DNA of 52,142 bases from Girardia tigrina (lineage: Eukaryota). Below the pieces are notes generated by a model, which saw only the letters and a list, made by a program, of their open reading frames with translations, did not search any database and was not told where the DNA came from. The translations under genes and the position numbers were made by a program. Positions 31,412 through 51,431 of the stretch are shown in pieces. The stretch is from NCBI GenBank assembly GCA_001938485.1, contig MQRK01250014.1, forward strand, positions 1 to 52,142, read 5' to 3'. Position 1 is the stretch's first letter. The number at the start of each line of letters is the position of its first letter.

Positions 31412-32010
31412 TTATTTATACTCTTGCGAAAAAAAATTTGCGAATCTTACTGGAATTGTTTTTTGATGTACATTTTCAACTTCAGTACATAAAGAAACAT
31501 TATATTTTTCCATAAATGAAACATTTGGTTGAAATAAAAGATCATCATATGTGTCAATTGTTACTTCTGCACAATAAAATACTTCTGCTCGATAAGGAAT
31601 ATTTAAATTTTCATTTATATGTACATCGGTAACTTCGTGTATAATTTCTCCATTCGGAACTGAAATTAGATTTCCACTATTCAAATCAATTGAAATCCCT
31701 TTTAACTGTTGGAGTAGATCCATTCCAATTAAAAGTTTTTCAGGATATTGACCACTCACTAACACATTAGCTTCTATAATTCTATTTCCAATTGCAATTT
31801 GAACTTTAACATATCCTTCAATTACAAGATAGTCTCCAGACACTGATTGTAATTCTTCAAAAATTGGCAAAATATTTAATTTTTCAGACGATAATAACAT
31901 TGCTTGATTTATTATTGTGACAGAAGATCCAGTGTCAATTAATGCTAACGTTTTTCTATTATTAAATAATACCGCTAAAGTCGGTCTCCTTCCTGACTTT
32001 GCTTTGATCA
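31412..32010 (-). CDS. Retropepsin aspartic protease plus Gypsy post-PR spacer, in the same ORF (31412-33154) as the Env C-terminal half
   Basis: RPTLAVLFNNRKTLALIDTGSSVTII...LLIGMDLLQQL, with the catalytic DTG at 31936-31928. Confidence 0.92.
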
Positions 32011-32450
32011 TAGAAACATAGTTGCTGGGTACTCCCCATTGATTTCTTTTTTCTATATTTTCTTCACCCTCTTTAAAGGTTCCCAATTCTGAACTGATTG
32101 GTTTCATTTCTTCTAATTTGAGAAATGGATAAGAAGACAAAGAATGAATACTTGGAGGTGGGGTAAAGAATCTTCCCGCTTGTGTTTCACATTCGTTTAA
32201 TGTTTGCATCTGATTTTCATAGTATACACATTTCTTGTTCGTTGGTTGTGCTGTCATTTGACTATCAGGTTCATTATTTTTATTGCCTTTTTTATCATCA
32301 CCAGAGTTACTCGGATCACTATAAGAATCTTCTGAACTTGTCTTAAATTGTATACTTTTACTACTTCGCTTAGAGTCATTTTGACTTTTGTGTTTCTTGT
32401 ACTGTTTCACAGTCGATTTTAATGTATTAATATCTTTGTTACGATGATGA

Positions 32451-34291
32451 ATTATTAGAAATTTAGCTATAGTTGGTATACATCCTACAATCAACTGCCA
32501 TGAAATTCCAACCATTGTATATAATCTATATGTTGATAATATCTGAGTTAGAACCACTTTAATTATGATATATATCACATAAACACCAATAAGACCTGCA
32601 CAAGCTTGACAAAAGAATACAAATCTTCCCCAAATTTTTTTCATAGTATTCATGGTTGCTCTCTTATAATGATCAATACTCAAAAAATTGTCATAATTAA
32701 CTTGATCAACACCTCCTGGTAATACAGTGTCTACAATTTCAGTTACAACTCTTTCTCGTTTTGACGGAAATAATAAATTTCTTCGAGCATCCTCTACCTC
32801 TTCGGTTGAGTATATTCCATTTGAAGATATTTGGTTTAAAGACGTAAAATTAATTGAATACTCTAATTTAGTGAGTTCTAATTTTTCCACATTCTTCACT
32901 TCTTTATTATTTGGTAATGATATCCATGTATCTGGATTTAACCGATATAATGGAGCTACAATTTCATTACAATTTAAGACTTTAAGTTTCGTACCATTTT
33001 CGACTAAAACTCGAGTTATAGGTTCAACATATCTCAATTCTCCTTGAAACATTACAGGAAGCTCATTTGTGCATACATTGTTTTTAATCAATTGAACTGC
33101 AACTTCCTTACATTTAAGTAAACATAGATTCTCCCAATACTCTTCAAAATACACCGTTTTCTGAAATTAACATTGGAGCGACTAAATTTGGATTTGTGAA
33201 GATTAATCCTAAACGATTTCTGAAAATTTCTCTGTTTAGTTTACAATCATTTAATATAACTTCACTATACATAATTTCAATTGTAAATTGATTAAAATGA
33301 AAAGCAAAATCGATTTTGTTATTTAAATATTGAGATATTTTTATATCTGCATTTTTCACTATTCCAGCATCAGGGATTTTCTCTTTTGATACATATAAAC
33401 TTTTATAATTTGTCGTATAAATCATTTTTCCACAAAGAGTTTGTTGATCCTTTTTAATAAATTGCATTCCATCTGAAGTAAGAGAGGACATTAAAACTGT
33501 CGCCAATTTCCTTTCCAATACAGGATATGCTTTTCTTGTTTGGGCCCTTTTAGGCTTTAATATATCAGGTCTTTCACGAATTTACATACCTTGGGCTTCA
33601 GTAAATTCTACTGATTTCAAAAATGCTAAATTACAATCTTTATAATTGACTTTATATAATAATACTGATTCTCCAGTCTGGCAACTAGTTTGCTGAAAGT
33701 TGCAAAAAGGATGTGACTGCAATTTTCCTGTAGCTTCATCAAATATACCATCAAAAGTTCTCAATTCTGTCTGATACTCTTCTGAAATCATTATCTTTTG
33801 TATTATCTTTCCACCCAATTTTACAGCTTCTCCTTCGCAATCAGCATTGGCTTCCATTGTACCTTTTCAGATAACAGATTCTCTCATTATTGATCCAACT
33901 TTTGCAGCTAATTTTAATGTTTCATCAATTTTTAATTCTTTAGTCTGAAAGGCTGCCTCACAATTTTCGGGTAATATTTCTACTGGCCTTGGTATGGCAT
34001 CAATCTTAATCAAAGAAGTGTGACTCCATCTTCCACAATGAAATACATAAGTTGCTTTTTTCACAATACATTCTCTCACTTTTGCTCTACGAAATCCTGA
34101 TTCTTGATACAAGTGATACAATACATTAACCTTTTCTTTAATATGTAACGGGTAAGCTTCCGCACACTCAGCAACATCTAATAACGAATACGTTTTTCCA
34201 CTTCAGTTTGTGAACAATCATAAGCTACAAATGCTTGAGCTTGGTTCATTCCTAATATAATAAATAAAATTAAAGTGAACCACCACAATTT
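32451..34291 (-). pseudogene. Env: chuvirus-type (class III, gB-like) fusion glycoprotein with signal peptide and C-terminal TM; several frameshifts and stops
   Basis: Signal peptide LWWFTLILFIILGMNQAQA|FVAYDC. Motifs ECIVKK..FHCGRWSHTS, LCGKMIYTTNY, YLNNKID..MYSEVILNDCKL, KCKEVAV..CTNELPV..PITRVLVENGT..C and GIYS..R..LLFP. Hydrophobic segment at 32623-32451. Confidence 0.85.
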
Positions 34292-35073
34292 AGAACTATT
34301 ATTAATATTAAATTCATGTTTAGTTTTATCATTATTAATACTATCAATGTCTTTGATTGCTTTTTTCAAAAATGATTTATCAATTTTTGAAGTGTAAGTA
34401 TCTTGAACTGTCGCAACATTTTCCTGTTTAATATTATTCTCGACATCTTCAACATCTATATTCATGCACTGTATTGAAGGTTCAATTTTAATATCTTTAT
34501 CCACTGAAAGAGGTAAATCTAGACTCAAATTACTCGTAATGTAAATATCATTAATTTCTTTATTTGTGGCATTAATTTCATCAATAAAAAAATTTTTGAA
34601 TCTGGTTCATTTCACCATCTAAAATTACATAATCATAAATATAATTCTCGTCTTCTAATTATTGATTTCTATAAAACAATTGAACTGATCCGGATATCTT
34701 AATTAAGCTTTCAATCTTTTCTCTCAACTTTTTTACTTTAGCACACCAATTTTCAGCTAAGTAAACTACATCTTTTCCTAGAATATTCAAAGCCAAATAC
34801 ATTTTTGGTATATTCAAATTTTTTTTTATATAATACATGGCAAACTTTTTTAATAATTCTTTTATTTTTACTCCAAATTTTGTTACTTCATGAATTCGTG
34901 TCACCAATATTGGCTTTAAAAAACTTACTAATCTTTCTGAGACTGTAAAGGTATCAATTTCTTTTAATAAATCAATAATTTTTTGTTCATTGTAGAATTC
35001 ATTCTTAAATTCATTAATAAGACTCAATGTAATTTCTTTTATACGTGTCTCTGTTTCCAATTCATATTTTAAT

Positions 35074-35298
35074 TCAAGAAACTTGTATTTTAACATCAAC
35101 CATATTTTTCTGAGAAGGTAAAATGCCATAAGCAATTAAATATTCTCCATTTTCTAAAATCTGATTATTAAAAGTTAACATAATATTCTTACTTTCCATT
35201 TTAGATATAACTTCCTCCATTAAATCTTTAACCTTACTCTGCAACGATAACTCAAGTAAAATAATTTCTTTTCCACAACTACTAACAACAATAGGCAA
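35074..35298 (-). pseudogene. Ubiquitin-like (beta-grasp) domain within the retroelement polyprotein
   Basis: IILLELSLQSKVKDLMEEVISK...MLTFNNQILENGEYLIAYGI aligns by eye with ubiquitin [22 protein letters not shown]...[20 protein letters not shown]. No C-terminal GG. Confidence 0.6.
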
Positions 35299-35302
35299 CT
35301 TT

Positions 35303-36908
35303 TCAAAAACTAGACTGTCTTAATTCTTTTCCAAAAATCCGCATCATTTCCTTAGCTTTTACATTGGAATTTTCACTATTATATAAATGATCTGACAATA
35401 ATTTTACTAAACTTTCTTTTTTCTCGATATTTAAACTAATTTTGGAGACTTTTCCAATATTTTTAAATAATTTGTTCACAGTTTCTTTACTCAATTCCAC
35501 TTGATTTGATACTCTATTAATGAGAATTCTTATTTTATCTACTTCTAATTCATAAACCTTTGTACATACAGGTTTATCATCAATCATAAATTCAGTTGCG
35601 TTTTTACTTGTTTCATGATGTCTTTTCCTTGATTCATCTTTACTAGCTGATTTTGTTAACATCGATGATTTACTTTTAGTATCGCCCATTCGAACAGATA
35701 ATCTGTCAAATTGTGTTCTCAACTCATCAAATTCAGTTTTCCTTGTATTGTTAGCACTATCATCATCTGATGATAGATAATTAACATCCGCCGTTTGTCT
35801 TGGAATTTTATATGTTTTTTTCAAAATTGAAGGTGAATATTGCTTTGCAGTTGATCTACAAGTTCTGGCTAGGTGTCCAAACTTTTTACATTTTTCGCAT
35901 TGAATTTGACAATTTATATTAACTCTATCGCGTTGTGGCGATGGTGTTAAAGATCTGGTATTAAATCTACAAACATTTGCTGTATGACCTCTTTTCCCAC
36001 AATTATAACATGTAATAGTATTTGCTGTATTGCTTGGGAAGGTTTGTTCTTTAAACCAACACTGATTACTTGCATGGCCTAGTTTATTGCAATTAAAACA
36101 TCTGGGGATCTTTTTGTCAACATTTTTTCGCACAAAATTTGGACTAACATTACGAAAATTTGATCTGGGGATATTGAACTTCTATTACCACTATTAAAGT
36201 TATTGTTTTGATTAGTTTGAGGTCTGTATTTTCGATTGTTGTTTATTTGTTAAGGTCTTTTTATTTTTGGAGATGAATAACTATCGCTTTCTCTTTCAGA
36301 ATCGCTTTGTCTTAGGATCGATTTTTGTAGTCGTTCGAAAGATTTCATCTCAGTTGCAAAAACTGAACGAGTTGGAACTGCATTTGAATTCATTTCGATT
36401 TTCATTGCTTTTTTCACTAACTCATCAAATTTGGCATATTCAACTAAACTCAATGTAGCTTTAATATGATTCTGAACCCCAGACCAAAATTGATCCTCCA
36501 CCAGTTTTGATGTCTGCTCTGTCCATTTTTTTGCGATCACCAAAAGCTTTTTCTGCAAGCAAATTCACTTACGGATTCATTGGCATTTTGTATTCTCGTA
36601 TAGAACTTTTTGCGTAAAATTTGTCCAATGTCTCCACTGATTAATTTTTCTACAAGAGCATCCTTTATTTTTGACCAGTCAACAACTGTCCTTTTATCAA
36701 TCTGAGTATAAGCTTCTCTGGCTGCCCCTTTTAGGTACAAAGGCAATCTTTGAATCATAGTTTTATCTGACCAACCGTACGCCGAAGCATACATATAATA
36801 ATCTGTCATAAAATCAACGAATTCAACAGGATCTCCTCCATATTGATTTACTGGTAATCTTTGAAAATTTGCAATATCATTATTATTTTCACGATTCTCA
36901 TCTGCTAT
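35303..36908 (-). pseudogene. Ty3/Gypsy Gag (capsid plus three CCHC zinc knuckles), frameshifted
   Basis: YGWSDKTMIQRLPLYLKGAAREAY and RIQNANESVSEF, then CFNCNKLGHASNQC, CYNCGKRGHTANVC and CEKCKKFGHLARTC. Confidence 0.9.
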
Positions 36909-40310: not shown

Positions 40311-41107
40311 ATATATATTGATTAATGCCGTCATCAATCTGGGTCAAACATACACTCATTCATTTCACCATACACACTATTTCGGTTGTGACCTATTACA
40401 CAACAATACAAAGATCACACCTCAAACATTCCATACATAAATTACACAACATTCAATTATTAGTTTCGATAATAATTCTCCTCACATATATAATTATTAA
40501 ATCAAGCTGAGTTATGGCTTTTCAATTTCGCAAAAAGTAAGATGGAACCAATTGCACCAGTAAAACGTAAAAAATTATGGAGGAAGAATTCGTTAATAAA
40601 AGCAATTGATGATGTTTTGTGTTTCAATGTAATTTGAGTGTTGATTTGTGATTATGTTAGATGCTTGATATATATTATTATCTGAACTAATTTGTGTTAA
40701 ATACTCAAATTTATGTTTAATATATTATGCTTGTTTATTTTTTTGGTAAACAAAAATTATTAGTACTAACACCAAAGATTGCGGTAGTAAATACCCTTGT
40801 AAAGCTTCACCACACTAGCTTTCTATAGATCGATGTTTTATGTAATATTCGTATTTCTTTCGTGCTTCGTTTTTCTGGGCAATTTCCATGGCAATTGAAA
40901 ATAATTTACCTTCGTATTAAACGTTTTAAATGCATATATGTTATTAAAGTTTATTCAGATTGAGTGAAAGATAATCCTAATTGTATGTTGTAAATATTGT
41001 GTGAGTTTCTTCAAAACGCAAGCTAATTTCTTCGTATAATCAAGTTAGAAATAGTTTAAACGTTTATTACGCTTGGAGGGGATTCCGTGCCTCCACGTTG
41101 TTTTGGA

Positions 41108-41488
41108 CAGATAACGGTAGTAATCGCCTTTCATTTTTAAGAAGAACACTTTAGCTTCACCGCCATTTGTAGCCACCAACAAGAACTCATCGAGTAAGGC
41201 TATTATATCAGCGCAAACTTCATTCAATTCTCTTTCAATTTGACTTCGGTAGGCTTTAATCAGTGGAAGTCGAGAAGGATCTTTTTGTTCGATGCTACTC
41301 ATCATCCTCCACCACGCTCTCCGATTTCCGATTACGTTTTTATATGCTACGGATAACAAGTCACGCTCATCCATGTTTAATTCGCCAGTCATTTTAACGA
41401 CATCTCTCATCGCATTAACCACTCCATCATATTTCTCAGCCCGTTCAGCTAATTTAGCTCTATACACTTTCACCTCTCTATCAGCCAT
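41108..41488 (-). pseudogene. 14-3-3 protein, intronless N-terminal half, truncated after YYRYL
   Basis: AKLAERAEKYD, ERDLLSVAYKNVIGNRRAWWRMMSSIEQK and KVFFLKMKGDYYRYL. Similarity then stops and the ORF ends at 41045. Confidence 0.92.
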
Positions 41489-42714
41489 TTTATCAATTTA
41501 TTCTTTTTGTTCGTTCGATTAAATTATTTCTTTTGTATTTAAAAAATTGGATTGAAAACAATTGAGATTGACACAAAGACCTTTTATTATTTTTTTTTAA
41601 ATTGACAAACTTTTTTAAAATTGTGAGAACAATTCACACAAAAAAAACTCCCCCCACACACACACAACAAACAGACATTCACCAATCATTATTTACATAT
41701 CAAACATGCATACACACTGCATTCATACATAAAAAAGAAATTACCAGTGATTGATATGGAAAACAATGAGGCTCACAACCCGCTCGCCATTCAAAATATC
41801 GAGACAATCAATCACTCGTTTCGAATTTTGATTGGCGATTACATAATTTAATTGCTTGTCACTGCTGGATGATAATTAATTTTCCAATTTCTTTGTTAAA
41901 ACTTTTTAATTAGTTATGAATATATGAAACCTTTTAACGAATTTTTCTATTTAAATTCAGTGCCATGATTATGATTNNNNNNNNNNNNNNNNNNNNNNNN
42001 NNNNNNNNNNNNNNNNNNNNNNNNNNNNNNNNNNNNNNNNNNNNNNNNNNNNNNNNNNNNNNNNNNNNNNNNNNNNNNNNNNNNNNNNNNNNNNNNNNNN
42101 NNNNNNNNNNNNATTTATTATATGTTTTATTTATAAATTTTTGAAACTGGCAAAAAAATGTTCGGTCAAATTGACAATTCTCCGTTCCAACGCTAAACGA
42201 AGATCGTTTAAACGTTTAGAAAATTTTAAAACGTGCCCACGTCTAGATACACCATTCTCACTAGCTAGACCTCCTGCTAATCGTCCAATATTTTGAAACA
42301 ATAGTTATTAAATGGAATTTTATGTTATTGTTTTGAATATATTTTCAAAATTTTCACTATCATGTAATTACAATTATAATTTTATATGTTCATATTATTA
42401 ATAAACTTATCATTTATCTGTGAATTCACTGATTATGTGTTTTTAATATCATAATTTATTTATGTGACCAGCGGGACTATCTTCCGATGCACCATCCGGC
42501 CCGCGTTGTCAAAAGTTTGAAGACCCCTGATCTATATTATGAAGTTTCCAATTTGTTTTTCTGTTGTGATGACGATGAATAAACTGGAATTATGAACTGT
42601 AGTTTTATCATGTCACATTGAGTTGATTGTGAACGCAAACTTTAAAGACAGTGGTTATTTTACTTCTCTAGTTGTAATTTGTTATTTTCAGAATGGATTT
42701 TTCAGAATGGATCT

Positions 42715-44121
42715 TCAAGTTCGAGTTTGGGGCGCGTTTGCAGAAGCTGTCTGTTCAAGAATAAGTCCTCGCCCCATTTTCCAAATGATGTTTTGATAAA
42801 GTGTTCGAGGTCCCAACTCTTCCTCCATCTCCAAATCCTTCAGCCGTACGATAGTGCTTTCAAGTAGGTACAACAACCGGTCTAGTTCCTGCACATTCCT
42901 GTTATTCAGCGGTCTGAAATACCGGATTTCCTCATGAATGGATGCATAGATCCGGCCTGGACCTCCATATCTGGCATCGAGCTTCCACAGGCTTTCTTTG
43001 TAAGCTGCTGCACTGAATCCAAGACATTCTATTAGGTTCAGCGCCTCTCCTTTCAAATATTTCCCCAGGTACAGCAACTTCTCAAGATCCGATGCGGAGG
43101 TTTCATCCACGCATAATTTAAAGGCCGCTTTCCAAGCTTCATACTCCTTGTTGGTTCCTCCAAATACGGGTAATTGGATGCGCTCCATTCTGTCCAAGCT
43201 CCTCCCTTTTCTCGAAGAGCTGACCGAATCTTCTGAGCTATTCGATGATGCATCCTCCGAATCTACTTTCTCTGACTTCTGCAGAGAATGTATCTTTTTT
43301 GATTCCCGTCCTGAAGTTAATTTTTCTTTCACTTGCATTCGCTTTTCATATAAAACCGTCAACGCCTCCTCTCTCTGGTCCAGTTTCTCCATCTCTTCCT
43401 GCAATTTGTCCGCATTCTCCAGATCCCCGGCCTGATCGTAATGCTCCATTAGTACCTTGAAACTTGCTAATAAATCCTCGTTTTTATCTTGATATTCCTG
43501 ATGTAAACCCCACCATTGTACATTAGGGATGTCAGAATCCAATAGCCGTTTATAAGCGAAGGTTAGTGGCCGTTTGTCATCTCTTTTTTGTAGGACCAAC
43601 TTCCGGAAGTTCATTGAACTGAGTTGCCCTGATTGTTCCAGAGTGATCTGTGGTTCCTCTTCTGGTAGATCCATTCCACCCAGCAATTTTTCCACACATT
43701 CAATTTTAGCGTATTTGGAGAGACCGCACTCAACTATTGACTGTTTATTCTCCAGAAACTTCCCCTGGAATATCAATTGTTGAAAATGAATGGGTACTCT
43801 CTCTTTTTCCCATATTCTTTCTTTAATATTTGTTATCGTACTGACAGCCCCATTAATGCTTATAATCCGTCCATCCATCAATCGAATGAAGACGGGCATG
43901 AGATTTTTCGCATCAGAATTAACTTTTGCTTCAAAGAGGTCGTAATTTGTTTTATTATCTCTGATTGAGGTTAATTCGTTTGATGAATCGAATTCACTGA
44001 ACTCGATCGATCTCTCACTTGTATTTTCTTTCTCTCTTCCGTCCTCGAACTCCTCGTGTCTGTCGTGTATTGTGCGTGTTACATGTCCTCTCGCGTTCGG
44101 TCTGAGTACCTCAGGCACCAT
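42715..44121 (-). mobile_element. BEL/Pao Gag ORF (468 aa, 3'-truncated) with an N-terminal ubiquitin-like domain
   Basis: DUF1759-type core MERIQLPVFGGTNKEYEAWKAAF..EKLLYLGKYLKGEALNLI..YKESLWKLDARYG. PBS-like TGGTGCC at ~44120. Ubl at 43899-43675. Confidence 0.88.
43675..43899 (-). CDS. Ubiquitin-like domain (75 aa) ending in di-glycine, fused in frame to BEL Gag
   Basis: MPVFIRLMDGRIISINGAVSTITNIKERIWEKERVPIHFQQLIFQGKFLENKQSIVECGLSKYAKIECVEKLLGG|M. About one third identical to ubiquitin by manual alignment. Confidence 0.9.
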
Positions 44122-44552
44122 ATTATCTTTCTCGTGAGTACTTCTCTCGCGTGCTCACTTTCTGGAAACAAAGCGAAAATATTTCTCACTCGCGTAGAGC
44201 GATGCAACCCACACGCCAACTACCAATACACACGCATTCTCAACGCGACACACACGTGGTCTGGCTCGAGGACACTCTCCACAATCTGTCTCAGATAACT
44301 GTGCTCGCTCTCGCACTCATTCTTCCGATCGATCAATATCTTTCTATCAAGGAACGCCGCGATCGTCTCTTTCTCTCCAGCTCTTTCTTTCAACGACGAT
44401 CGAGACAGATTACTTCCATCAATTTCGGTGTCCTTATCACCATAGATATAAATCAATCGACACATGAGATTTGCTTGATCGATCAAACATATTAGTGGAA
44501 TTTTATTATTATTAATTTTATAAATTTTAATGATTGTTCTATGGAACTCTAT

Positions 44553-45128
44553 CGGTGAAAGAATCAATCTCTTAAGATTGCCGAGTCTCTGACAAGCCTT
44601 TATGGCATCACTGATTAATTTGATTCTGTTTGCGTGTAGCTCGAGTGACGCCAAAGGGTGCCCGCGAGTATTGGCGAGTTCACTAAATCCCGTTAGATCA
44701 CTAATCGCATTATACGATGCATTTAATTTAACCAACTGTCGCAATTGAGATAATCCTTCCAATTTTTTTATTCGATTCGCCGATAGATTTAACGTTCTCA
44801 AATGAATCAGTGAATCGAGACCGCTAATTTTCGTGATCGCATTCGACGACAAATCCAGATGCTTCAAGTTACTCAGATTATCCAATCCTCTCATAACAAT
44901 GATTGAATTATAGGGTAAATTCAATGTCGAAATGTTCGGTCTCAATCGAACATTCAAGACGTCTTTTATACCGCAATCGATAAAATTCTCTTCGATAACG
45001 TTTTCCGATTCGAATTGCCCCTAAGAAAGCATTTCATTCTTACTGATGGATACTTCGTTTGAACAATCGACTGAAGTAAAATTCGAAGAATTATGACACT
45101 GTTCTGCTTTCATTGAGTATAGTTCCAT
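44553..45128 (-). pseudogene. LRRCC1: LRRCC1/VFL1-like centriolar LRR protein, N-terminal part only, intronless, with one in-frame stop (45023-45021)
   Basis: FIDCGIKDV..TLNLPYNSI..LKHLDLSSNAITKISGL..LRTLNLSANRIKKLEGL..LNASYNAISDLTG..LELHANRI..LKRLIL follows the recalled LRRCC1 N-terminal LRR layout. The SDS22-type LRR call is secure; orthology is inferred. Confidence 0.7.
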
Positions 45129-45146
45129 ATTGTCAAACCGGCCATT

Positions 45147-45383
45147 GATGATCGTCACGAGTGCGTTATCCTGTAGCAGCTGTCGGTTCAAATTCAGTGG
45201 AACATAAGTACTCTCGAATATACCACGAACAAACCTCAACCAACTGGGCAACAACTTCTCTGCGCGGTTCATTATGAGGACTTTCCAACTGTATAGAGAG
45301 ACTCCGAAAGCATTTCCGCTCTTTCGTGAGATTTCATACAGAATCTGCTCAAGATTCGTAACGAATAAAATTGATTCAATATC
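45147..45383 (-). pseudogene. TRAP1: TRAP1/Hsp75 (mitochondrial Hsp90) middle-domain fragment
   Basis: GVSLYSWKVLIMNRAEKLLPSWLRFVRGIFESTYVPLNLNRQLLQDNAL matches the TRAP1 pattern V.LYSRKVLI....[28 protein letters not shown]. Confidence 0.88.
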
Positions 45384-45513: not shown

Positions 45514-45595
45514 AACCACGCTCTGCTACCAATTGGAAATAATTTAAAATTACTTTTGTTGGGGCCAAGTATTAACGTTCGGGACCAAATAGGAC
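45514..45595 (-). promoter_or_regulatory. LTR 3' end (...TTCCA), 2-nt spacer and 18-nt tRNA-iMet primer-binding site
   Basis: The minus strand reads TTCCA-AT-TGGTAGCAGAGCGTGGTT. This is complementary to the ...CTCTGCTACCA 3' end of animal initiator tRNA-Met. Confidence 0.85.
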
Positions 45596-45596
45596 C

Positions 45597-46392
45597 AAAT
45601 CTGTGCTAGCGAAAGATCTATCCATTAGGGATGTTAGGGATTCGTACGTGGATGACATCATAGTAGATCTAAACAGAGTCAGTAGTCAACAGGTGTAAAG
45701 TGTGCTTGAGAGTTTTGGACTACTGGTAAAACCAGCTGAAAAGCTGTGCGGAGGCAGAGTTCTAGGGCTGCGGATATATGAAGAGAACTGAGTGACGAGA
45801 TGGAAACAGGACAATTTTATACAAGAAGTTAGTGCAGAGTCGAAGAAAAGGGAGATTTTTTCGTGGTACGAGCAAGTGACCGGATATTTCCTGATTGCAG
45901 GTTGGTTAAGATCAGCTTGTAGTTTTTTGAAACGTATGGTGAGTGAGAGGAAGTGGGACGAGAAAATAGATAAGACAAGCATGAATATTTTAAATTACAT
46001 CACGAAGTGACTGGACGCTTATGATCCGGTGGGTGGAGTGTTGGACATCCCAAAGACAAATGAAGGTCGTGTGTGGTGTGACGCCAAGAGTTTGGCTATT
46101 GGGGTATGTTTGGAGCTAAACCACTCAATCATGGAAGATAATTGTTGGTTGTGGAAAAAATACTATATCTTTCATATAAATTTAGCGGAATTAGAGGCAG
46201 TGTTGAAAGGGGTGAACGTGGCATTAGCATGGGATGTGAATGAAATAGAGATATTGTGTGATTCGGCTACAGTATGTTCGTGGGTGAAATCTATTGTCAC
46301 GAGTGATAAACGGGTTCACGTGCACTGACTTTTGAAGTATTGGTAAAAAGTCGTTTGTTTTTGTTTAGCAATTAATACAAGAATGTGAAGTC
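45597..46392 (+). mobile_element. LTR-retrotransposon RT-RNase H fragment, degenerate
   Basis: SYVDDIIV, FGLLVKP, RVLGL and AGWLRSACSFLKR. RNase H motifs VWCDAKSLAIGV, HINLAELEAVLKG and CDSATV. Confidence 0.85.
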
Positions 46393-46752
46393 CAAGGAGG
46401 AATGGAGTCGGATGATCTGGAGAAGACATTTTCAGATAGATTTAGACAAAAAAGATTTGAAAAAGGAGTCCTCACCAGATTTTGTAACAATCTATTTGAC
46501 GCTGAGACCGATACAGAGAGAAAAGAGGTTAGACAATGGTACGAGGAGAAATACTTTCAGGTGATAGAAGAACTGGATGATTTAACTGTACTCGGCATAA
46601 AATTGGAAAAAGAAGATCAAATTCAAGAAGTAGACAACCATCTCAAAGACCTAGAATTGAAATATGAGGATATTGAACATATAATGCATGCAAGGGAAGA
46701 AAAAAAGTTGATTAATGCTGAAAGTGTGAGAAATAACGATGGGAGCGCAACA
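46393..46752 (+). pseudogene. Probable BEL/Pao Gag N-terminal helical fragment, preceded in frame by QGG
   Basis: RQKRFEKGVLTRFCNNLFD parallels LQKRDDKRPLTFAYKRLLD in the 44121 Gag. It is cut off by the LTR at 46753. Confidence 0.45.
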
Positions 46753-47221
46753 CGTGAGGAATATTTTAGATTGTTTGAATGTGTAAATGTGTTGATGCTG
46801 TATGTTGATTTAAATATGTTGAATTTAGAATGGTGATTCTCCAACCCAGATAGAAATTGATATTTTTTTATTAAATTTAAAGTAATTGACTATTCGAACA
46901 TAATTAAAATAATCATTTTATAAGTTCATATCTTTAATTTCAGAATTAAAATTAAGTTTAATAATTTTAATAATTATTTTAATAATTATTTTGGGATTTA
47001 TTGAACAATGGTAAAAATTAATATTTTTAATTAATAATTTTTAGAGGTTAAATATTTTAAAAAATAACGTAGAAAAATTGTTCAAATAATCATGATTAAA
47101 AAAAGAAATAAGAAAAACAATTAGAAAGATGACAAACGATGACAGACCTTCTGAGAGTTTTAATGATTCTAAATGTAATTTCAATAAAGATTCAAACGAG
47201 ACTTGTTTAAATGTTCTTAAT

Positions 47222-48260
47222 ATGGCGACACACGACCACGTAACACCAATTATTAAGGGACCGGAGACATTCGATGGGTCAGAAGCATAATTAGAAGAAT
47301 TCATAATAAGCTTTGAGAGATATTCAAAGATTTTGGGATTTAAGATAGAAAGAAAAGCAATATTAGTTACAGCATTCATGACCCCAGAAGCGATAAACAA
47401 ATATGAGAAAACACAAGAAGGCAGTTTGGAAACAAGAATGATAAGTGCATTCTCGAAAGAGAAAAATATTTTAGAGATAATGAAAGAGCTTGTAGAGATT
47501 AGAATCGGGGATAAAAATCCATCAGAAGTATTTAAAAAGATTGATGATCTAGTGGAAAAACTAGTTGAGAAAAAACTAGGAAAAAAGGAACTTTCAGATC
47601 TAGCGTACGACAATGTCGTCGAAGATAGAGAAGTAAGAAGAGAAATGAATCTGAGAAATGCTACAAAAGTAGAAGATATAAAAAAATATCCAGGAGAAAA
47701 TTTACGAATTTGAGCTGAAAGACAGGAATATAAGAGTGGACGCATACACAACAAAGGAAAATAAAGAATGCAAGAAAGTAAAATATAGAACAAGAAGACC
47801 GAGACCAAGATACGAAGAGAGAAAGAACGAAGAACCAAGAAGAAATTTTAATGCGAGAAGGATCATATGTCGGGCCAGCTATGAACAAGGACATGTGAGA
47901 TGGGAATGCCCAAATGTTAAATGCAACCATTGTAATAAGAATCTAAGAACACAATGTTATGGGAATCCAAGCAGATTTAGAGAACACGAACAATCTGGAA
48001 GAGAAGATACAAGGATTAGAAGAAATGAACGAAAAGAATACACAAACACACGGTACAGAGGTCGGATTGGATATTAGAATAGAAGAGACCAAGTAGCAGA
48101 ATTAGAAGACTCCGATGACGAGTGGAATAGAATGTCGGAAAGACCGAATAAAAAAGAAAGTCTAACAAGAAGAGAAAATATTACAAACAAGAAAAATTTC
48201 AGAGACGAACAGGGGAATGATTATGCACGGTCACAGGGAGAAGTGATCAGTGCACTTCAC
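47222..48260 (+). pseudogene. Gypsy Gag with degenerate zinc knuckles
   Basis: IKGPETFDGSE, then CRASYEQGHVRWECPNVKCNHCNK. Stops and frameshifts are present. Confidence 0.75.
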
Positions 48261-48300
48261 TAAGAAACGAATTTATGTGTATGTTTGACTATATGAATGA

Positions 48301-51300
48301 TTGTTTGTATGGGATGCTGTTGAAAATATTCCTCGGGAATTGTGTATATTAGATGGTGAAAACGAAATAGAAAATGAGAAATGTGACAGTTTGATCACAG
48401 AAAAAGATGAAGTGAGAAGCACAGAAATAATGAAAATATCAAAATTTAAAATAGAATACGAAGAACTGAAAGGGAGACCTAGTATAGAATTTCAAATAAA
48501 GAATAAAAAAGTACGATGTCTATTGGATACGGGAGCACGAGTCAGTGTAATTAAAATAAACTTACTCAATAATATGGAAAATATCAAAATAAAAGAGACA
48601 AAAAGACGTAAACACTGTGCTAACGATACGGAACTAGTAAATTAAGGAATAGTACAACTAAAGATTAAGATTGAAAGAATACAGAAAATAGTGGACTTTT
48701 TTGTAGTAAAAGATTTAAACCCGAAATGATTGCAGGAATGGATTTTTTAAATAAATTCAGCATAAAACTAAAGAAAGAAACAGGATACAACGAAGGAGTG
48801 ATGGTAATACGCGATACTTTAACTGATGGAGACAGACTTAAAAGAATAAGGAAAATATACGCAGATAAGATAGATGAACCATTAATGAAATTACTAATAG
48901 AATATAAAACGATATTTATGGCGGACAAATGGGATATCGGGAAGACCACATTAACTAAGCATAACATTAAAATGCAAGGAGAACCAATATTGGTAAAACC
49001 ATACCGACAGCCAAAACACTTTGAGGAAAAACTAGACGATATTATCAAGAATTACGAGGAAAATGATATCATTGAAAAATGTAGTTTGCCGTGGAACTTT
49101 CCGCTAAAATGTATTGTATGGAAAAAAGACAAACAGGATATCCGAGTATGTGTTGATTTTCGACAATTAAATAAAGTCACAATCAAACCAACATTTACAA
49201 TGCCAAATGTAGAAGAAATGCTAAATACATTAAATGGAGCGAAATACTTCAGCACGATCGACTTGGGGAGTGCATATCATCAAGTCGAATTGGAGAACAA
49301 TTCAAAATTAAAAACTGCATTTTCGACAAAGAACGACCAATATTGTTTTAAAAGAATGAAATTCGGAATTGCATCTGCTCCAGTGACATTTCAAGAACTA
49401 ATGACAAGAGTGTTAGGAGAATTAAACTGTAAAGAAGGAATTGTATACCTGGACGATATTCTAATCTTCGCAAAAGACAAAGAAGAACATTTCAGACGAG
49501 TCGAATACATTTTTCAAAAGATTAAAGAATCGGGCCTTCGGATAAACCCTGAAAAGTGTCAATTCATGGTAGAAAAGACAAAAGTTTTAGGATATGTCGT
49601 GAGCAAAGATGGTATAGAGACGGATAAAACGAAAATTGAAGCAATCGACAAATTTCAAAATCCTTCATGCATTAAACATTTAAGAAGATTCTTGGGGCTA
49701 ACGAACTATTATAGAAAATTTTTGAAGGATTATGCAAAATATTTAAAAATACTGAAAGGGTTATGTGGAAAAAATAAAGATAAAAAATTGACATGGACAA
49801 AGGAATGTGACGAAGCATTTCAGACATTAAAAGATAAAATGACAAAAACACCGATACTTGCATATCCAGATTTCGAAAAGGAGTTTATACTGGATATAGC
49901 CTCCAGTTTTGATACAATCGGGGCAGTACTGGCACAGAAGGATGCATACGGAAGGGAAAGAGCAATTGTATATGGATCCCACAGGATGAACAAATACGAA
50001 CTGAGATACTGTATTACAAGAAAAGAATTATTGGCAAACTGTTACTTTACCCAACACTTCAAGCACTTCTTTTACGGAAAGAAGTTTTTGCTTAGAACGG
50101 ACCATAAGGCCATCACATTCATGATGACAACGAAGAACCCAATAACTCCACAATTCCAAACTTGGGTAAACTTCCTTAGTGGACTAGACATGAGGATGGA
50201 ATACCGCAAGGGCGAAAAACACACTAATGCAGACGCAATTTTGAGAAATACATGTGAACTATGTGTACAATATCAGACAATGCACGATGACGCTAAAAAA
50301 GGAAAAGTTAAAACTAGAATCCTTTCCTTAACTGAAGATTCAGAAGAGTTCATTTGGCAGACGAATGATAAAGAAATAGAACAGATTAAAGAAAATATTA
50401 GAATGTGAAAGACAAATGAATGGCTTCTAAAAAACAATATAGTGACGACAAGAAATAACAAATATTGGATCCCTTTGAAGAAGAGAACAGATTTTATAGA
50501 AGATATACATAAAATGTTACGCTACGCAGGAAGTAAGAAAGTTTACAATTACATAAAAAATGACTTCAATATGTATGAAATGAGACAACAAATAAAGAAC
50601 ATCGTACAAAGTTGCGCAAACTGCCAGAAAAGGAAGACGCTGACGGCATAAACGAAAGAGAAACACATTAAACAATCTGTCGACGAACCATTTCAAAAAA
50701 TTTACATGGACTTTTGCGGACCATTCAGAAGGACTATGAATGGATACCAATACATTTTAGCAATAATCGATCAATTTAGTAGGTAAATCAGTTTGACCGC
50801 AGTGGCACACCAAGACGAGAAGACTACACGGAAGGTACTATTGGAAAAATGGATTTGGAAATTCGGACTACCAAAGAAGATACACGTTGATAGAGGGAAA
50901 ACTTTTGAATCAGCACTCTTTAAAGAAACGACGAAAAGATTTAAGACGGAGATAGTCTATTCAAGTCCTTATCACAACAACACTAACGAAATCACAGAAA
51001 GACAATTCAGAACAATAAGAGACGCCATAAATATACGATTAAATGATGAAATGCATAGAGATTGGGTAGAAATGTTGGCGGAAATAGAATTCATGTTAAA
51101 CGGTGCAATCCAAGCAACAAATGGAATATCTCCCTCCGAGATAATCTTCGGAAGAAAACTAAGACATTGGTGGAAAACTACAACAGAAGGAAAAATTCGA
51201 GAAAAAGCAAATAAAAAAATAATTGAAACAAAACGAATATTTCAGGTCGGAGATAAAGTCTTGATAAAGAAAGTTCACCCATCAAAAGATGATGACCGTT

Positions 51301-51431
51301 ATATGGGATCAGCTAAAATTATAAAGCAAAGACACGAAAGAAGTTATGAGATACAACTAGAGGACGGCAGGATCTTGATCAGAAATGTAGAATGGCTAAA
51401 GCCATTTAAACCGAAATATTTTATATTTTAA
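48301..51431 (+). pseudogene. Gypsy Pol: protease, RT-RNase H (ORF 48726-50408) and integrase
   Basis: CLLDTGARVSVI, RVCVDFRQLN, FSTIDLGSAYHQ, VYLDDILIF, FLGLTNYYRKF, RTDHKA, CANCQK, HVDRGKTFES and ERQFRTI. Confidence 0.95.

Follow-up and report, generated by a model that had tools for sequence, protein, structure and literature searches.

A ubiquitin-like domain ending in Gly-Gly before Gag in BEL/Pao retrotransposons of Girardia tigrina: a predicted processing site for host deubiquitinases

BEL/Pao retrotransposons in the genome of Girardia tigrina carry a ubiquitin-like domain (Ubl) that ends in Gly-Gly directly before Gag, and this arrangement is present in 14 lineages of the host genome. 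The domain is under purifying selection and lies inside a longer reading frame, downstream of leader sequences captured from host genes. We consider it probable that a host deubiquitinase (DUB) cuts after the Ubl di-glycine and so frees Gag from a disposable captured leader, as captured ubiquitin does for pestivirus proteins; the cleavage is a prediction. The copy described here lies in a 52,142-nt stretch of contig MQRK01250014.1 (the window) and belongs to a family that we call family A.

The family A Ubl occupies positions 43675..43899 on the reverse strand of the window (75 amino acids; Pfam ubiquitin, E 2e-12; fold and identity agree) and has an L-L-G-G end. As an earlier note on this DNA had described, it contains equivalents of ubiquitin I44, G47, K48, K63, V70 and L73, about one-third of it is identical to ubiquitin (26 of 76 positions, or 34%, for host ubiquitin), and its terminal KLLGG stands immediately before MDLPEEE and a BEL Gag. 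The Gag region (42757..43674, reverse strand) comprises an N-terminal helical part and a DUF1759 domain (approximately 42,817-43,164; Pfam E 1e-13). In an AlphaFold model of the window protein the Ubl adopts a beta-grasp fold and Gag is helical, while residues 73-93, which include the tail, are of low confidence and unstructured. Ubiquitin gave the best Foldseek matches to the modelled domain, with a target TM of about 0.9 and an rmsd of 1.2-1.5 A. Sequence and model together give the protein the structural features of a cleavable type I Ubl fusion, a beta-grasp fold and a di-Gly that lies exposed where Ubl and Gag join. The di-Gly (43675..43680, reverse strand), which abuts the Gag methionine, is the predicted host-DUB cut site on the basis of its conservation among copies and of the model.

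In the structure search the domain was 28% identical to human NEDD8, used as the reference, compared with 31-36% to ubiquitins. An origin from FUBI, suggested by the similar tail, was discarded, as only 12 of 72 positions match host FUBI compared with the 26 of 76 that match host ubiquitin. A private chimera with a nearly identical host Ubl gene was likewise set aside, given that the Ubl is common to many family copies and has only this level of identity to host ubiquitin. Canonical ubiquitin is near-invariant, ends in LRLRGG and carries R42, R72 and R74. Family A lacks all three arginines, has a Leu before the GG and a Phe at the Q49 position, and does not belong with it; the sister families F1 and G show these canonical features fully or nearly so.

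The window copy is a decayed element. Upstream of the Ubl on the same strand lie a leader linker (43900..44222), which is frameshifted in this copy and in frame in others; a captured fragment of an LRR gene with adjoining linker (44223..45020; Pfam LRR_4, E 3e-12), common to family copies; a captured HSP90 middle-domain fragment (45138..45383; Pfam HSP90, E 3e-15), missing in several family A copies; the primer-binding site (PBS; 45516..45531); and the last 27 or so nucleotides of the 5' LTR (45534..45560). Homology with other copies ends at 45,560, and the rest of the LTR is gone. The PBS is complementary to the 3' end of a tRNA-Met-like genomic sequence of initiator type with a visible CAT anticodon, and it has 13 genomic matches compared with none in the control; ARAGORN called no gene at the two loci tried. 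A stop codon near 45,021 and frameshifts near 44,237 and 44,118 break the frame, and the copy ends at about 42,755 without Pol. The 468-aa ORF from which the earlier note had started does hold both the Ubl and DUF1759, but its beginning is private: a Met at 44,121 in the Ubl frame occurs in one of 23 copies examined, the window copy alone, and the ORF arose through decay of this copy. A single open frame runs through HSP90 fragment, LRR fragment, linker, Ubl and Gag in copies L043, L044 and L045, and the Ubl is therefore internal. Apparent open frames of 2,052 and 1,458 aa consist mostly of runs of N and were left out as evidence of length.

Other copies establish the elements as BEL/Pao. TG...CA LTRs, the PBS, a PPT and a target-site duplication (TSD) all occur, with LTR pairs 89-98% identical and accompanied by a PPT in copies elsewhere and with a 5-bp TSD at a family C solo LTR. 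The family A locus L035 has Gag, RT, Peptidase_A17 (the Pao RNase H) and integrase in BEL/Pao order; the sister locus L070 also has RT-Peptidase_A17-integrase, and L055 has RT followed by Peptidase_A17. A protease is encoded by the autonomous copies L061, L057 and L070. In five of the family A loci scanned (L031, L036, L040, L043 and L049) a CCDC149 fragment takes the place of Pol, as it does in protein P0126, and many such non-autonomous copies keep Ubl-GG-Gag. Protein P0127 is comparable, with a CFAP58 coiled coil at its end.

As the Ubl Met1 is kept in only 6 of 18 lineages and the GG of several families is followed directly by Ser rather than Met, neither the Ubl nor Gag is self-starting. 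Among ten loci with a detectable PBS, the frame from PBS to ubiquitin is free of stops in six (95-156 codons), where each other frame contains 5-13; the remaining four have 2-16 stops in the ubiquitin frame. Upstream of the PBS, the LTRs hold swapped pieces of host genes, among them 14-3-3 (also at L164), RPB10, LSm3 (E 6e-12) and VAC14 (E 3e-17) and a weak BTB match (E 1e-3), and in several copies these are in frame with the Ubl. Protein P0278 is one uninterrupted ORF that runs from an RPB10 start through HSP90, ubiquitin and GG to Gag. The window carries such cargo in a sister family C solo LTR (41074..42189, reverse strand), which is bounded by TG...CA and the 5-bp TSD and contains the first 130 or so codons of a 14-3-3 ORF, start codon included; although the piece looks like a gene of the host, it is cargo of the LTR. 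Of six family A copies of the HSP90-less variant, just two have an open frame from PBS to LRR, owing to variation in a (TA)n tract, and a leader AUG could serve as the start there instead. Either candidate start, an LTR AUG or a leader AUG, sits far upstream of the Ubl. Of 16 leader and LTR peptides submitted to Pfam, ten had no match and two more had a chance-level match only. The possibility that the AT-rich tract downstream of the PBS is an intron was considered, and inspection by eye showed no clear splice signals. HSP90 middle-domain fragments, representing differing parts of HSP90, recur in leaders (L060, L062, L063, L066, L068, L043 and P0130); that of family C has a pN/pS of about 0.35 in private and shared variants alike.

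The arrangement extends well beyond the window copy. The host genome is AT-rich and 1.43 Gb in size; a search of it gave 1,613 candidates, of which 150 were scored, and about 100 of these matches belong to family A and carry the Ubl, so that its absence from other copies, the first ground on which the earlier note would have abandoned its proposal, is not observed. Weaker matches are other BEL families, each with its own ubiquitin-GG before Gag. We also took a census of 90 loci picked without reference to ubiquitin, 70 by DUF1759 and 20 by Peptidase_A17. Excluding 34 without a Gag N-terminal match and two with short upstream sequence left 54 with such a match and readable upstream sequence. 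A Ubl profile match was obtained in 49 of these and a tail was recognized by eye in four more, while the last proved to be a spurious Gag match; a ubiquitin-type tail therefore lies just before Gag in 53 of 54 loci, a count that includes four identical duplicates and that rests on a Gag profile built from ubiquitin-bearing families, which could miss BEL families without ubiquitin. The Gags of five families compared are only 27-31% identical. CCCH zinc fingers stand where CCHC knuckles are usual in the Gags of some sister families (L066:6095-7942, L067:3409-4386 and P0127).

Outside this genome, a search with a Gag-only profile found a Ubl directly before Gag in 6 of 151 proteins, and a seventh protein begins at a KLKGG junction. 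One of the six is 93% identical to family B, and the other five are 35-60% identical to their best host-genome loci. In the more distant relatives that carry a name (Mya, Haliotis) there is no Ubl, and the protein begins with a Met that closely precedes the first helix of Gag. In a quick Gag tree, rooted at the midpoint only, 31 rows without ubiquitin form one clade (SH-aLRT 96) and the ubiquitin-bearing lineages are not resolved; a single origin of the latter is compatible with this tree, as are several. Only polyubiquitins were among the 120 matches listed for a homologue search with a ubiquitin-plus-Gag alignment; a search with the window protein returned one distant BEL protein, which lacks a Ubl, and a metagenome DNA scan gave one locus whose match is confined to the ubiquitin part. 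The ESM Atlas yielded only DUF1759 clusters (score 0.79), a lead at best. Six of nine listed sequencing runs share 5-23% of words with the query, two of them recorded as RNA, which is not evidence of expression.

The junction is strongly conserved. GG|M is kept in all 39 family copies selected by their Ubl, and the two glycines are kept in 29 and 28 of 30 copies selected by their Gag. To count residues across families we used one representative per lineage, 14 from the host genome and five from outside. Among these 19, G76 is kept in all, L73 in 18 and G75 in 17, and the core-fold residues K27, Q41, L50, F4, G10 and I13 are conserved like the tail. K48 and K63 are each kept in 13 lineages, H68 in 10, and I44, V70 and R74 in only nine. 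The glycine codons at the junction show synonymous differences between families. Loss of the GG is seen in single copies, which end in RRG, RDG, KGV, KEG or REG. In two lineages an upstream polyubiquitin remnant reads GS or GV in place of GG in all 15 readings, while the unit adjacent to Gag retains it.

Selection was assessed by comparing variants shared between copies, which have passed through replication, with private variants, which are mostly decay. In four families pooled, the Ubl has 19 nonsynonymous and 46 synonymous shared variants compared with 148 and 87 private ones (p=2e-6), and for family A alone the test gives p=0.0065 in the Ubl-selected set and p=0.09 in the Gag-selected set. 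The Ubl is thus under purifying selection. Several pairwise dN/dS values of the Ubl between close copies, for which the earlier note had asked for a figure below 1, are 0.4-1.2 and speak against it. The leader shows no shift in amino-acid changes between shared and private variants (p=0.49), yet stops are absent from its 108 shared changes in family A and make up 18 of 311 private ones (p=0.005). Amino-acid change in the leader is therefore near-neutral while stops are purged, a pattern to be expected where translation of a peptide is required and its sequence is of little consequence.

In some families the ubiquitin has been renewed from the host. Compared with units of one host polyubiquitin gene, the ubiquitin DNA of families C, F1 and G shows 0-5 base differences in its first four 38-nt windows and 2-9 in its last two. 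Elements whose Gags are 85-99% alike bear ubiquitin of either 91-92% or 63-67% identity. The cassette has therefore been patched from host ubiquitin while the junction stayed fixed. The view that divergence reflects long residence rather than a fresh capture fits family A, the most diverged lineage seen, but not its sister families with 91-96% native ubiquitin, which were patched recently. A search of this genome gave 3,445 ubiquitin candidates, many of which are element-borne. Many short polyubiquitin genes of one to three units were also recorded (L072-L101; 27 distinct unit sequences in 30 loci), some of which may themselves be mobile.

The window contains further elements. A fragment of sister family E (46391..46658, forward strand; 90% DNA identity to L069) starts at the GG|M junction and lies among gypsy remnants. 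A decayed gypsy element (47,291-51,431, forward strand) with Gag, protease, RT, RNase H and integrase is accompanied by 120-nt direct repeats at 46,761 and 51,423. On the reverse strand, a gypsy-like element (31,412-36,908) encodes, in this order, a CCHC Gag, a weak Ubl-like domain without GG (about 34,600-34,800), a Monjiviricetes-type fusion glycoprotein (Pfam E 4e-47) and a protease that shares a frame with the end of the glycoprotein; a genome search with it gave 1,479 candidates, of which the 150 scored had E below 1e-20.

These observations suggest the following route to Gag. Translation would start at an upstream AUG, either a host start codon that was captured into the LTR or a leader AUG, and the variable leader of host-gene fragments would be translated and later discarded. 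A host DUB would then cut after Gly-Gly and release Gag with a fixed N-terminus, which Gag presumably needs to be free. The captured leader upstream of the Ubl is the likely reason for a cut site. From known biochemistry, cleavage of the near-native F1 and G fusions is near-certain; for family A we are less confident. Cleavage of human FUBI is reported to be limited to USP16 and USP36 by the nonpolar residue that precedes its GG and by hydrophobic surroundings of I44 (PMC10611586), so that GG alone is insufficient, and family A likewise has Leu before its GG, together with the Phe at the Q49 position. With its KLLGG tail and without R42, R72 and R74, family A would need a permissive, FUBI-type DUB. 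As host FUBI ends in SLKGG, such an enzyme probably exists. The residue after the GG is mostly Met or Ser, and Pro, which according to PMC9703124 leaves ubiquitin fusions uncut, was never seen in the families examined. A Met at this position says little, because it is probably just the old Gag start.

Five other readings of the domain were weighed. Fusions with a near-native LRLRGG tail should be cut, which argues against the Ubl remaining attached to Gag as a folding chaperone or UFD-type turnover tag. Such roles, which we regard as unlikely, would suit a core fold conserved like the tail, the atypical tail of family A and the ability of internal ubiquitin to direct degradation (PMC9703124). 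They would not require a GG, however, yet G75 and G76 are among the most conserved residues, while the upstream ubiquitin remnant has lost its GG and the Ubl-like domain of the gypsy element in the window has none. Instead, the GG might serve conjugation of the released leader-Ubl, as a decoy that would disturb host ubiquitin signalling and make Gag release a by-product. Several families do keep 91-96% ubiquitin refreshed from host polyubiquitin, and N-terminally extended ubiquitin can be conjugated; but the ubiquitin E1 reads R42, R72 and R74. The conjugatable decoy proposed in the earlier note is consequently improbable for family A, which lacks these arginines, and quite unlikely overall, with R74 and K48 variable across the 19 lineages and a DUB required for the cut in any case.

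Cleavage at or near the junction by the element's own aspartic protease, encoded in the autonomous copies, is very unlikely: neither a ubiquitin fold nor L-x-G-G would be needed, and many family A copies with CCDC149 for Pol keep Ubl-GG-Gag, though the protease could be supplied in trans. Recombination with abundant polyubiquitin mRNA might also have rewritten the junction with no selection on the protein, and the recent host-derived patches in families C, F1 and G fit this idea. It is largely refuted by the patches being nearest to host sequence in the 5' two-thirds and least so in the tail, by families only 34-55% identical to ubiquitin that keep the GG with different glycine codons, and by the depletion of amino-acid changes among shared variants. 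Engineered Gag-ubiquitin fusions can substitute for late domains, and the window copy has equivalents of I44, G47 and V70, so the Ubl might help particles to assemble or be released by recruiting ESCRT or another ubiquitin receptor. This second suggestion of the earlier note has lost ground and now seems extremely improbable, as I44, V70 and H68 are retained in only about half of the lineages, an envelope domain was not found in the loci scanned, and a cleavable GG would remove the tag. The earlier note's remaining suggestion, processing by a host DUB, is the best supported of its three as a predicted cleavage, and none of the findings it had listed as adverse (a Ubl missing from other copies, a nearly identical host gene, an unconserved GG) was made.

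A wider version of processing by host DUBs is more tentative, and we put it forward as a possibility about which we are divided. Both ends of Gag production might be outsourced to the host, which would make this the first retrotransposon clade with host-DUB-dependent capsid maturation. The 5' ends of host mRNAs (14-3-3, RPB10, LSm3, VAC14 and a BTB-like gene) swapped into the LTR would provide the start codon; reading would pass through U5 and the PBS, and the renewable ubiquitin-GG cassette would let host DUBs trim the leader. Family A would have drifted to a FUBI-like, non-conjugatable tail cut by a restricted DUB alone, perhaps timing or localising assembly.

If processing by host DUBs is correct, a mobile element depends on a host deubiquitinase for its maturation, and the tolerance of these elements for many in-frame captures of host genes is explained. 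The natural series of ubiquitin variants at one junction (34-96% identity) offers a probe of DUB requirements, and the many ubiquitin candidates that lie in elements are a warning for genome annotation. We found no description of Ubl-GG-Gag retrotransposons in the full-text literature; Repbase reports and most subscription journals were beyond the scope of that search, and a brief mention is possible. Sporadic mutants of pestiviruses provide the known cases of captured ubiquitin as a processing signal; what sets the present case apart is its fixed, selected and repeatedly renewed state in a retrotransposon clade.

A captured host fragment, YLR075W (presumably RPL10), has been recorded in a Schmidtea BEL element, BEL1-I_SM. 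It lies at nt 346-589 of a single ORF (PMC3597677), and neither the main text nor the supplement rows of that paper report ubiquitin for this element, supplement file 1 being outside the search; the main text of a BEL/Pao survey (PMC3118150) does not mention ubiquitin. With BEL/Pao elements as described by de la Chaux and Wagner (2011) and Abrusan et al. (2013), the present families share LTRs, PBS, PPT, a DUF1759 Gag and the PR-RT-Peptidase_A17-integrase order. Ddi1 and Ddi2 are similar in that a Ubl is described as joined to a retroelement-type domain, the retroviral-like protease, but they have no Gag and no cleavable junction. Both are host genes with an integral Ubl.

Ub-eL40, Ub-eS31 and FUBI-eS30 are, like the BEL/Pao proteins, linear Ubl-GG fusions; host DUBs process them, as is predicted here, and FUBI shares with family A the nonpolar residue before GG. 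They are, however, host genes with an N-terminal Ubl, whereas the BEL/Pao Ubl is internal. Cytopathic pestiviruses are reported to use captured ubiquitin as a polyprotein processing signal (PMC8310069). In strains such as BVDV Osloss, CP1 and CP Rit, host ubiquitin or a Ubl stands before NS3, often with other host fragments such as S27a upstream, and cellular hydrolases cut to give an authentic N-terminus (PMC8310069, PMC13517609), much as we predict for Gag. Each of those inserts arose independently, at the level of a strain of an RNA virus, whereas the BEL/Pao arrangement is fixed across 14 lineages of LTR retrotransposons, where the domain precedes the capsid protein and has diverged to 34% identity in some lineages and been refreshed in others. 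The BEL/Pao Ubl-Gag would thus appear to work like the pestivirus inserts and the ribosomal fusions while being a member of neither group.
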